A program made the position numbers and the translations under genes. Positions 3,012 through 16,989 of a stretch of DNA of 25,234 bases are shown here, in pieces (the first letter of the stretch is position 1; every line of letters begins with the position of its first letter). This DNA comes from an uncultured Candidatus Saccharibacteria bacterium (GTDB lineage Bacteria; Patescibacteriota; Minisyncoccia; Phycocordibacterales; DSPV01), in the NCBI GenBank assembly GCA_964372805.1, contig CAYJSB010000002.1:1-25234 (forward strand), given 5' to 3'. The notes under the pieces were generated by a model. That model worked only from the letters and a program-made list of their open reading frames with translations, did no database searches and was not told the origin of the DNA.

Positions 3012-4185
3012 ATAAGGTTGTCTCGGAGACATTAGGAGTTTTTTCCTCAGATGTCTGCTTTGACACCTCGCCCTCACTTGGTCCTGACGATTGGATGTCA
3101 ATGCGCCAGCCGGTTAATTTTGCCGCAAGACGCACATTTTGCCCGCCTCTGCCTATCGCAAGCGACTGTTGGTCCGCGGCCACCTCCACTTTAGATTGTT
3201 TTTCGTTTTCGTCAACGATTTCTACGGAAAGCACTCGCGCGGGCGATAGCGCGTCTTCAATGAACTGCTTGGTATTCGGCGACCACTCTATAATGTCTAT
3301 TTTTTCTCCGCCGAGCTCCGACATAACGGTAGAAACGCGCACGCCGCGCTGTCCAACAAGAGAGCCGACAGGGTCAATGTGCGAATCTTTTGAAACTACG
3401 GCGACTTTTGAACGAGAGCCGGCTTCGCGCGCTACAGATTTTATTTCAACAACTCCGCTTGAGATTTCCGGCGTTTCCATTGCGAACAGCTTTTCAAGGA
3501 ATTTAGGATGAGAACGAGACAGCTTCAAAAACACGCCCTTCGGGGTTTCTTCAACCTTATAGAGATACGCGCGTACGCGCTCGCCTTGTTTGTAGCGCTC
3601 TCCGGGTATCTGCTCTTCGTATGGTAGTATCGCGTTTGTGCGCCCCATGTCAACGAAAATATTTCCGCGTTCCACGCGCTGAACGGTGCCGGTAACGATA
3701 TCTCCTTCTCGTTTGCCGTACTCTTCCATAACTGATACTTTTTCCGCCTCGCGTATTTTTTGGATGATAACCTGTTTTGCTGTTTGCGCGGCGATGCGTC
3801 CGTAATCGGATTTTTCTTCAAGCGGGAAGACGAGTTCATCGTCCACTTTGGCGTCAGCTTTTATCTTTTGGGCATCTGGCAATAATATGTGATGTTCCGG
3901 ATTGAAACGGATTTTCTCTTCCTCGTCTGGCGAGGTCTCGGGAATCTCTTCATCTTCCATAATAACTCTATCCGGGTCCACAACGGTTTTAACTTGGAAA
4001 AAATCGGTTTTGCCCGAATCTACGTCAAAAGTTGCGCGCACAATTTGCCCTTTCTTTCCGTACTCTTTTTTGTATGCGGTTGCGAGTGCGAGCGCGACGG
4101 CTTCAAGCACGCGTTCTTTTGGAATACCCCGCTCTTCTTCCAATTGTTCCAACACCGATTTTATGACTTTTAGATCAAATAGCAT
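3010..4185 (-). CDS. nusA: Transcription termination/antitermination factor NusA
   Basis: FGRIAAQTAKQV-like YGRIAAQTAKQVIIQKIREAE, S1 domain, KH domains (AREAGSRSKVAV, GSLVGQRGVRV, AIGRGGQNVRLAAKLTGWRIDI). Confidence 0.98.
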   Translation of the reverse strand: MLFDLKVIKSVLEQLEEERGIPKERVLEAVALALATAYKKEYGKKGQIVRATFDVDSGKTDFFQVKTVVDPDRVIMEDEEIPETSPDEEEKIRFNPEHHILLPDAQKIKADAKVDDELVFPLEEKSDYGRIAAQTAKQVIIQKIREAEKVSVMEEYGKREGDIVTGTVQRVERGNIFVDMGRTNAILPYEEQIPGERYKQGERVRAYLYKVEETPKGVFLKLSRSHPKFLEKLFAMETPEISSGVVEIKSVAREAGSRSKVAVVSKDSHIDPVGSLVGQRGVRVSTVMSELGGEKIDIIEWSPNTKQFIEDALSPARVLSVEIVDENEKQSKVEVAADQQSLAIGRGGQNVRLAAKLTGWRIDIQSSGPSEGEVSKQTSEEKTPNVSETTL

Positions 4186-15133: not shown

Positions 15134-15142
15134 TGATACAAT
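15134..15142 (+). promoter_or_regulatory. Extended -10 box of recJ (TG-A-TACAAT)
   Basis: TG at 15134-15135 and TACAAT at 15137-15142, 7 nt before ATG 15150. Confidence 0.55.
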
Positions 15143-15154
15143 TTTACCCATGAA

Positions 15155-15277
15155 TCCCGTTAGAGACCGCTTCGCTACGGGAAACTAAATCTATCAGTGC
15201 TTATCTTGTTTACAAATAGTAATATGACAAAACGAAGTTTGTATAACTGCAAGAAGCGTTCCCTGTCTCTGACGGGA
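15155..15277. mobile_element. 123-bp MITE-like insertion with 12-bp terminal inverted repeats and a TGAA direct repeat on both sides
   Basis: TCCCGTTAGAGA (15155-15166) and TCTCTGACGGGA (15266-15277), 11/12 complementary; TGAA at 15151-15154 and 15278-15281. Confidence 0.7.
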
Positions 15278-16989
15278 TGAAATACGCACTACGAAAGCGT
15301 TCCGATGACACTCTCCGCGTTGGGCTTGCCGAGTACCCGGAATTATTACAGCACCTGCTATTCTCGCGCGGCATCATGGATGCGTCTTCCGCGCAGGCTT
15401 TTATAAACCCACAGTACGAGGCTCATAGCCACGACCCGTTTTTAATGAAGGGAATGGAGGAAGCGGTCTCAAGAATCTATTCTCTTATTCGTGAGAATAA
15501 GAGAATAGTTATTTTTAGCGATTACGACGCGGACGGGGTGCCGGGCGGTGTCGTGCTCCATGACTTTTTCAAGAAAATTGGATTTACCAACTTTAGCAAT
15601 TACATTCCGCATCGCCACGACGAGGGGTTTGGTCTAAACTCGGAAGCGATTGAAGAATTCGCGCAAGACGGCGTGCAGCTTATCATCACCGTTGACTGCG
15701 GTATCGCCGACGAAAAAGAAATCAAGCAGGCAAAGAAACTTGGCGTTGAAACAATTGTTACCGACCACCACCTGCCTCCACCAAACGGCGTGCCGAGCGC
15801 GTTTGCTATACTTGACCCGAAACAGAAGGGTTGTAAGTATCCGTTCAAAGAACTCTGCGGTGCCGGCGTCGCCTTCAAACTTGTCCAGGCTTTGCTTTTG
15901 CGTGCCTCTACACTAACCCCTTCACCCTTCACCCTGCCACCCGTCGGCTGGGAAAAGTGGCTACTTGATTTGGTTGGCATCGCGACGCTTTCCGACATGG
16001 TTCCGCTTGTCGGTGAGAACCGCGTATTCGCGCGTTACGGGCTACTCGTCCTGCGCAAGTCCCCGCGCCCAGGGCTTCAGAAACTCTTGCGTAAGTCGGG
16101 TATTGACCAGCGACGGCTCACCGAAGACGATATCGCGTTTTCCGTCACACCGAAACTGAATGCCGCTTCGCGGTTGGGCTCTCCGGATGTTGCGTTCCGC
16201 CTGCTTGCGACAACTGATGAGACTGAAGCCGACACGATGGTGGACCAGCTTGCGCACCTGAACAATGAGCGCAAGGGCATTGTGGGAAACTTAGTGCGGG
16301 AAATCAAGAAAATCGTTGCGGAGCGGTATGAAAATCCACACGTTATCGTCGTCGGAAACCCCTTGTGGCGGCCCTCACTCCTCGGGCTTGCCGCGAATAC
16401 GCTCGCGCGCGAACACGCATGCCCCGTGTTTCTCTGGGGACGCGACGGCGAGAATTGTATCAAGGGTTCATGCCGAAGTGACGGGCAGGTGAGCGTGTTC
16501 GCGCTTATGCAGGCGGCACGCGGCGCGTTCTTGGAATTTGGCGGGCACGCGTTTTCGGGCGGGTTCTCTGTCGCGCAGGATAAAATTCACACGCTTGAGG
16601 CGACGCTTTCTGCCGCGCGCGAAAAAGTAGAGAAATCCGGAGAGCTTGCCGAGACTGTTGTCGACTGGAAACTTCGGCCAGATGAAGCGAGCACCGATAC
16701 TCACCGTTTGCTCTCGCAGCTCGCGCCGTTTGGTGAAGGAAATCCGAAGCCCGTTTTTCTTTTAGATAACGTGCTCGTGCAGCAGGTAAAGAGTTTCGGA
16801 AAAGAAAAAAATCATTTGGAACTTTTACTTACAAAAAGTAACGGCGGAAGCGTAAAAGCGATAAGTTTCTTTTTTGAAAATGCGCGCCCGCCTCAAGCGG
16901 GCGCGCATATCTCTCTCCTCGCCTCGCTTGAAGAATCAAGCTTTGGCGGCCGCACTGAACTCCGCTTGCGGATTGTGGAAATCCTGTAG
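15277..16989 (+). CDS. recJ: Single-stranded DNA exonuclease RecJ
   Basis: DHH motifs SDYDADG, TVDCG, TDHH, ATLSDMVPL, NAASRL; DHHA1 GGHAFSGG; C-terminal OB region PFGEGNPKPVF. Confidence 0.97.
   Translation: MKYALRKRSDDTLRVGLAEYPELLQHLLFSRGIMDASSAQAFINPQYEAHSHDPFLMKGMEEAVSRIYSLIRENKRIVIFSDYDADGVPGGVVLHDFFKKIGFTNFSNYIPHRHDEGFGLNSEAIEEFAQDGVQLIITVDCGIADEKEIKQAKKLGVETIVTDHHLPPPNGVPSAFAILDPKQKGCKYPFKELCGAGVAFKLVQALLLRASTLTPSPFTLPPVGWEKWLLDLVGIATLSDMVPLVGENRVFARYGLLVLRKSPRPGLQKLLRKSGIDQRRLTEDDIAFSVTPKLNAASRLGSPDVAFRLLATTDETEADTMVDQLAHLNNERKGIVGNLVREIKKIVAERYENPHVIVVGNPLWRPSLLGLAANTLAREHACPVFLWGRDGENCIKGSCRSDGQVSVFALMQAARGAFLEFGGHAFSGGFSVAQDKIHTLEATLSAAREKVEKSGELAETVVDWKLRPDEASTDTHRLLSQLAPFGEGNPKPVFLLDNVLVQQVKSFGKEKNHLELLLTKSNGGSVKAISFFFENARPPQAGAHISLLASLEESSFGGRTELRLRIVEIL

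Follow-up and report, generated by a model that had tools for sequence, protein, structure and literature searches.

A probable non-autonomous member of a family of tiny, start-codon-inserting elements on recJ of an ultra-small bacterium

The DNA between positions 15155 and 15277 of the window, that is, of the whole 25,234-nucleotide stretch analysed here (contig C2 of the source genome G000, which comprises 757 kb in 97 contigs and is 93% complete), very probably belongs, as a non-autonomous and internally deleted (MITE-like) copy, to a family of tiny elements that insert at start codons in Paceibacteria-type Patescibacteria; this judgement includes the steps involving the leader RNA and the nuclease, which are inferred. 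Full-length members of the family are approximately 275 bp long and consist of a single gene for a GIY-YIG nuclease of approximately 90 amino acids (aa), the first and last codons of which are the 13-bp terminal repeats. For the family as a whole, insertion at N/TGNN (the slash marks the point of insertion) with a 4-bp duplication, reconstruction of the ATG by the last A of the element, a strong bias toward start codons and the nuclease gene as the only cargo are established. The host is an ultra-small (Patescibacteria) bacterium, and its DNA-repair gene recJ stays whole despite an insertion on the start codon.

All features of the recJ locus lie on the + strand. The promoter is represented by an extended -10 box, TGATACAAT (15134-15142), which can be read directly in the sequence as host DNA and recurs as the same 9-mer in relatives. 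It lies 7 nt upstream of the original recJ ATG at 15150, which overlaps the left TGAA of a 4-bp target duplication (15151-15154). The entire element (15155-15277, 123 bp) is bounded by 13-bp terminal inverted repeats at 15155-15167 and 15265-15277, which are complementary at 12 of the 13 positions. In the RNA fold, the left repeat is prolonged by an inner stem extension, CGCTTC (15168-15173), whose partner GAAGCG (15253-15258) is reached across a 6-nt bulge, and the same bulged extension is seen in many of the elements of relatives. The final A of the right repeat is the A of the new recJ ATG at 15277, which is completed by the second TGAA (15278-15281). The sequence-only reading, which had described a 123-bp unit with 12-bp repeats matching at 11 of 12 positions, TGAA on both sides and a new ATG built from the last A and TGAA, is thus confirmed, the outer T/A pair extending the repeats to 13 bp. 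Its claim that the protein was left intact also holds, as the open reading frame (ORF) from the rebuilt ATG (15277-16989) encodes 570 aa with DHH, DHHA1 and RecJ_OB domains; the protein is 73% identical over its full length to the RecJ of the closest species. In four metagenome runs, a stretch of approximately 31 nt inside recJ (window 15477-15513) has 10-20 times the surrounding depth and is a point at which many contigs diverge; the word is probably shared with abundant relatives.

No complete gene is present in the element, the only ORFs in its 123 bp being of 12 and 18 codons. Mini-ORF 1 (15150-15188), which is opened by the original ATG as the sequence-only reading had stated, encodes MNPVRDRFATGN in 12 codons before its stop, and its codons 2-6 are what is left of the N-terminus of a nuclease gene. 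Mini-ORF 2 (15224-15280) encodes MTKRSLYNCKKRSLSLTG in 18 codons, of which the last 8 are the leftover C-terminus of the nuclease gene, and its TGA stop overlaps the recJ ATG. Neither the origin of mini-ORF 1 as a remnant nor this second mini-ORF, which ends on the recJ ATG, formed part of that reading; a further addition is that insertion at a start codon is a habit of the whole family and not a lucky accident at recJ. The number of repeat cores within the window is weak evidence when taken alone (2 matches against 0.40 expected, a count reached by 6 of 100 shuffles). The case therefore rests on comparative evidence, namely family copies with their own duplications and empty sites.

An empty recJ site had been proposed as a check, and it exists. 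In the same-genus genome G005, the identical TGATACAAT is followed by 7 nt and then by the ATG without any insert, and the RecJ N-terminus reads MRYALKERSDDTLR as compared with MKYALRKRSDDTLR in G000. The recJ starts of G002, G029 and other relatives resemble that of G005 and are likewise free of an insert; the 9-mer is identical in G005 and G029, where it stands 6-7 nt before the recJ ATG. The 123-bp element is absent from recJ of every relative compared with G000, and element-type ends were found in none of 80 further recJ orthologues when the 400 nt before the gene were searched. By contrast with these empty sites, G031, which belongs to another family of the order, carries on its own recJ ATG a unit (L027) with the same outer ends and an unrelated interior, and the duplication matches the second codon of G031 itself, as though a site of the same type had been hit independently. 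In four metagenome runs, the assembled contigs include recJ with the element in place and none joins the sequences on either side of it directly, but rare variants are dropped from contigs, so that this observation is uninformative as to an empty allele in the population.

Further copies, which the sequence-only reading had suggested should be sought genome-wide, occur in G000 itself and in hundreds of places in related genomes, with 4-bp duplications of their own. Ends of the type CCCGTTAG...CTAACGGG bound units of 100-310 bp in 54 of the 201 genomes of the order, with at most 20 per genome. The strict pattern was defined as left core, 80-320 nt, right core and RTG, and a reversed-pattern control gave 0 matches. 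Unit sizes cluster at approximately 100-128, 150, 185-200 and 273-280 bp. The distribution is patchy even within a genus: G001 has 47 end pairs, G005 has 29 and G004 has none, while G002 and G003 stand at the level of the control. As a whole, the 123-bp sequence of the recJ copy matches only itself in G000, and the family becomes visible only through its ends. At least 10 further end pairs or right ends are present in that genome, most of them adjoining a start codon with TGAA, TGGA or TGAG duplicated. Two of the occupied genes begin with MKLLIVESPA and VEHVSIKAETLFNIGPLP and are presumably those for topoisomerase I and ATP synthase subunit a, respectively, which is our own reading of the resemblance. 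In G000, a gene-less unit of 114 bp occupies the start codon of the topA-like gene (C90, right end at 229), and a full-length, nuclease-coding unit is found at the same position in G007, a member of another genus of the same family (L069, G007:C9:5282-5563). Elsewhere in G005 there are copies of the same subfamily as the recJ element, having the same 25-30 nt at each end; between the ends they cannot be aligned with the recJ copy, which thus does not come from a recent burst. The first 31-34 nt of the recJ element also appear in other contexts in metagenome contigs.

The duplications follow the host sequence from copy to copy. TGAA, TGGA, TGAG, TGTA, TGCG, CAAG, TCAA, CGAG and TTTA were all observed. 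A perfect 4-bp duplication flanks the element in 31 of 53 rows from G001 and G005 and is nearly always TGNN preceded by A, and when one locus per genome was taken from 30 genomes, ATGNN was repeated at all five positions in 20, NN being AA, GA, AG, TA or CG. The repeats vary in a similarly paired manner: at repeat positions 9-12, where 13 different 4-mers occur, left and right ends match in 75 of 85 elements, as against 18.5% when ends of different elements are compared. Five end pairs in G000 lie away from start codons, and four of the five have C...G outer bases and perfect duplications, namely CAAG at C23:3894-4012, TCAA at both C13:12214-12312 and C60:4282-4356, and CGAG at C48:4599-4660. 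CAAG is duplicated at two further places in G001, and sites of this type may represent a secondary target preference. The ambiguity of 1 nt in the repeat boundary that the sequence-only reading had admitted is real. A 5-bp duplication of ATGNN with one extra T would fit most of the start-codon copies, but a 13-bp repeat with the 4-bp duplication originally proposed is favoured by the copies that have a C...G outer pair and a duplication not derived from an ATG (CAAG, TCAA or CGAG), which it accommodates better. As a separate observation, 22 nt identical to one end of the C23 element (3990-4011) occur at G000:C74:2966-2987 within the 5' part of an rmlA-like ORF with no second end in the vicinity, and may reflect a solo end, a fusion or mere coincidence.

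Approximately 90% of the units adjoin a start codon. In five rich genomes, 91 end pairs were collected without requiring RTG, and RTG came next in 83 of them; similarly, a start-like codon adjoins approximately 47 of 52 elements fetched from G001 and G005 irrespective of their flanks. This bias is too strong to result from the survival of harmless insertions alone, because intergenic sites that are not starts are rarely used. What the elements recognize may be either the ATG or the start of transcription. Of 49 occupied starts, only 21 have a strict -10 hexamer at a distance of 4-10 nt upstream, as compared with approximately 28% (offsets summed) of all long ORFs in G000; this excess is suggestive but not decisive, and targeting of transcription starts is not established. 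Among the long ORFs of G000, TAnnnT hexamers are concentrated 6-9 nt upstream of the first ATG (117 of 552, against approximately 10 per offset elsewhere), and Shine-Dalgarno-like words show no peak before the first ATG, from which it follows that leaderless starts are common and that a ribosome-binding site is not the rule. The idea that recJ had been leaderless before the insertion gains support from these figures.

The sequence-only reading had also proposed a search for a transposase with matching ends. A coding parent with matching ends does exist in relatives, but its gene encodes a 94-aa GIY-YIG nuclease and not a classical transposase. Units of 273-280 bp with a GIY-YIG ORF were found in G053, G115, G087 and G007. 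In one of them (L047, with the nuclease at 1503-1784 on the - strand), the reading frame begins at the duplicated host ATG and passes through the left repeat, which supplies the codons NPVRE; the right repeat provides the end of the frame, ...KRFLSLTG, and the TGA stop lies inside the ATGA of the host. The product matches the Pfam GIY-YIG family (PF01541, E 1.7e-15), an assignment that gives only the general domain; the nearest solved structure is UPF0213 protein BH0048 (1zg2, E 1.4e-6), and the only NCBIfam match, to a group I intron endonuclease family, scores 20.5 bits and remains far below the cut-off of 56. L061, L062 and L069 have the same layout with a stop after MNPVRD and the nuclease ATG shortly downstream. 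Full-length relatives thus start with MNPVRE or MNPVRD in the frame of mini-ORF 1 of recJ, and end in ...KRFLSLTG and a stop with the ATGA overlap. The recJ copy retains the MNPVRD start (12 N-terminal codons) and a KRSLSLTG end with its stop (about 8 C-terminal codons), and this preservation of both termini together with the same ATGA overlap identifies it as a gutted derivative of the nuclease gene. No gene other than that of the GIY-YIG nuclease was ever seen between the family ends, and gene-less copies are far commoner than coding ones.

Within G000, which is 93% complete, no intact nuclease gene with family ends was found, and none of the end pairs up to 6 kb apart flanks a complete gene. 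Three GIY-YIG genes in this genome (two on C65 and one on C15) were considered as the parent and rejected, as none has the family ends and their surroundings are different. The one on C15 (13026-13280, + strand) lies in an intervening sequence of the 16S rRNA gene; its flanks read as conserved 16S sequence, and the CCCGTTAG ends are lacking. Nothing shows that the recJ copy is still mobile.

A mechanism that would account for these observations can be proposed. The elements insert overwhelmingly at N/TGNN of start codons, most of which appear to lie a few nucleotides after a -10 box, at leaderless starts; the staggered cut in the target is presumably made by the nuclease of the family. The old start codon then opens the reading frame of the element, and the last A of the element together with the duplicated TG rebuilds the start codon of the host. 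No sigma-70-like promoter was predicted inside the recJ element, and transcription of recJ is inferred still to begin at the old ATG. The gene most likely now possesses a structured leader of approximately 127 nt with two mini-ORFs, an inference from this presumed transcription start that is made without transcript or ribosome data. In the predicted RNA fold (-40.7 kcal/mol, z -2.75), the ends form a stem of 14 bp in which the first two bases of the new AUG are paired, and the end stem of the leader may thus partly cover the start of recJ. Ribosomes entering mini-ORF 1 from the 5'-terminal AUG may melt the left arm and expose the recJ AUG, and those translating mini-ORF 2 may melt the right arm and stop at the UGA within AUGA, which would lead to initiation on recJ; both steps are inferred. 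The only reason to regard the GIY-YIG protein as the enzyme that mobilises the family is that the full-length units contain no other gene, and we know of no GIY-YIG transposase. That the protein of approximately 90 aa is itself the transposase of a new minimal class of DNA transposon, in which gene and repeats are the same DNA, which targets the initial bases of leaderless genes (the transcription start or the start codon), and which borrows a promoter and an ATG from the host and repays it with a rebuilt ATG and stop-start coupling, is a serious possibility that nevertheless falls somewhat short of being probable.

It is conceivable, on the other hand, that the units are mobile and the GIY-YIG gene is merely a passenger or a homing-type gene, insertion and duplication being due to an enzyme acting in trans (for example, a hairpin-recognising Y1 protein of the RAYT/IS200-like type) or to host repair. 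Such an arrangement would explain why gene-less copies far outnumber coding ones and how G000 can have more than 10 copies without a matching nuclease gene; moreover, known GIY-YIG nucleases cut DNA and, to our knowledge, are not known to join it. Candidate enzymes are at hand, as G000 has three Y1_Tnp (RAYT/IS200-like) genes above the Pfam cut-off, encoding 194-236 aa (C25:9473-9754 on the - strand, C44:784-1014 on the - strand and C11:3776-4018 on the + strand). However, perfect hairpin repeats stand on both sides of each of the three; these repeats differ from gene to gene, are unrelated to the element and do not carry the CCCGTTAG ends, so that these genes were rejected as the source of the ends. 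In addition, IS200/IS605-type movement makes no target duplication (PMC11893778), whereas the units of the family have one, and the nuclease remains the only gene between the ends. An enzyme in trans is accordingly considered unlikely, but it cannot be set aside.

Two further explanations would deny mobility of the 123 bp at recJ or its presence in the message. If the sequence were a long-standing regulatory leader RNA that recJ had acquired by vertical descent and that resembled an attenuator or a riboswitch, the TGAA match would be coincidental; the stable stem that its ends form at the start codon and the short ORFs, which recall leader-peptide systems, are compatible with such a role. This proposal is very improbable in view of the absence of the sequence from recJ of same-genus genomes and of the 80 orthologues, the occurrence of the same ends before unrelated genes with unrelated interiors, and the variation of the duplicated bases with the host gene; furthermore, an Rfam search with E up to 1 on five loci with copies gave no relevant match. 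Removal of the element from the RNA in the manner of an intron would restore a leaderless recJ mRNA, and, with TGAA present twice, the product would not depend on which of the two boundaries was used for excision. Intervening sequences do occur in rRNA genes of the host group (PMC11270868), and one in the 16S gene of G000 contains the GIY-YIG gene on C15. Nevertheless, 123 nt is too small for a group I or group II intron, no intron family was matched in Rfam, and the arrangement of the full-length copies suits translation that begins at the old ATG and not splicing, which leaves removal from the RNA barely credible. We therefore retain the reading of the recJ sequence as an inserted, internally deleted family member.

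If the family works as inferred, it would represent the smallest type of autonomous mobile element known in bacteria, at approximately 275 bp, and the first case of a GIY-YIG nuclease used for transposition-like spread. It would also exemplify a selfish way of life suited to extremely compact genomes, in which a free promoter and a start codon are gained and both are restored to the host. For genome annotation, the copies shift the annotated starts of genes and create upstream mini-ORFs. The stem placed on the start codons of core genes, such as recJ and those resembling topA and the gene for ATP synthase subunit a, may modulate their expression. A small nuclease with so precise a target could also be of interest as a tool.

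A full-text literature search found no publication that describes GIY-YIG elements bounded by inverted repeats and located at start codons; the family is apparently undescribed, and the recJ copy is an ordinary member of it. Several known systems share parts of its behavior. The Ty3 retrotransposon integrates at the transcription starts of RNA polymerase III, and the resemblance lies in insertion within a nucleotide or two of the transcription start, which is the start codon in leaderless genes. Ty3 differs in being a eukaryotic retroelement guided by transcription factors, and in the present family targeting of transcription starts is unproven. The free-standing GIY-YIG homing genes of phages are likewise selfish genes that lie between host genes or at their edge and do minimal harm. 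In homing, as known from Seg/Mob of T4 and I-TevI, the gene is copied into the equivalent position of a homologous allele, and neither inverted repeats nor duplications arise, whereas the units described here occupy many unrelated sites and have both. IS200/IS605 elements and REP/RAYT systems share with the family a very small size, ends recognised as hairpins, a sequence-specific insertion site and many gene-less derivatives. They differ from it in that the family has a target duplication and no internal Y1 transposase, and the Y1 genes of G000 carry other hairpins.

The closest published system that we found is Ssn (Chenal et al. 2025, PMC11893778), in which the gene for a GIY-YIG single-strand nuclease is flanked by NTS/SRM hairpin repeats. 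Both have a small single-domain GIY-YIG gene with a repeat on either side, and the repeat is also scattered in many copies; the layout of Ssn was likened to an insertion sequence by its authors. SRM repeats are local hairpins of approximately 30 bp, for which no target duplication, start-codon position or mobility was described (PMC11893778), and their consensus differs from the repeats of the element. The SRM search motif had 0 matches in the element and 1 in G000, as against 3-9 in three shuffles. A related small GIY-YIG gene in G005 (L070, C7:16876-17136) has a different repeat, consisting of a local hairpin upstream and a half copy downstream, and this layout is closer to that described for Ssn.

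The recJ element meets the criteria for a MITE, namely terminal repeats, a duplication that varies between copies, an empty site, a small size without a gene and a coding parent with the same ends, although the parent was not found in G000. The criterion for a classical insertion sequence is not met: no DDE, HUH or recombinase transposase lies between the ends, and the only ORF is that of the GIY-YIG protein. Among bacteria, MITEs are exemplified by the Correia elements of Neisseria, and 4-bp duplications are made by elements of the IS5 and IS701 types. Inverted repeats, a short duplication, many gene-less copies beside rarer coding ones, a patchy spread and, by inference in the present case, effects on the expression of neighbouring genes are common to MITEs with their parent insertion sequences and to the present family. 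By contrast, the parent in this family is only approximately 275 bp long and encodes a GIY-YIG nuclease, its repeats lie inside the coding sequence, and insertion is almost always on a start codon, which is rebuilt.
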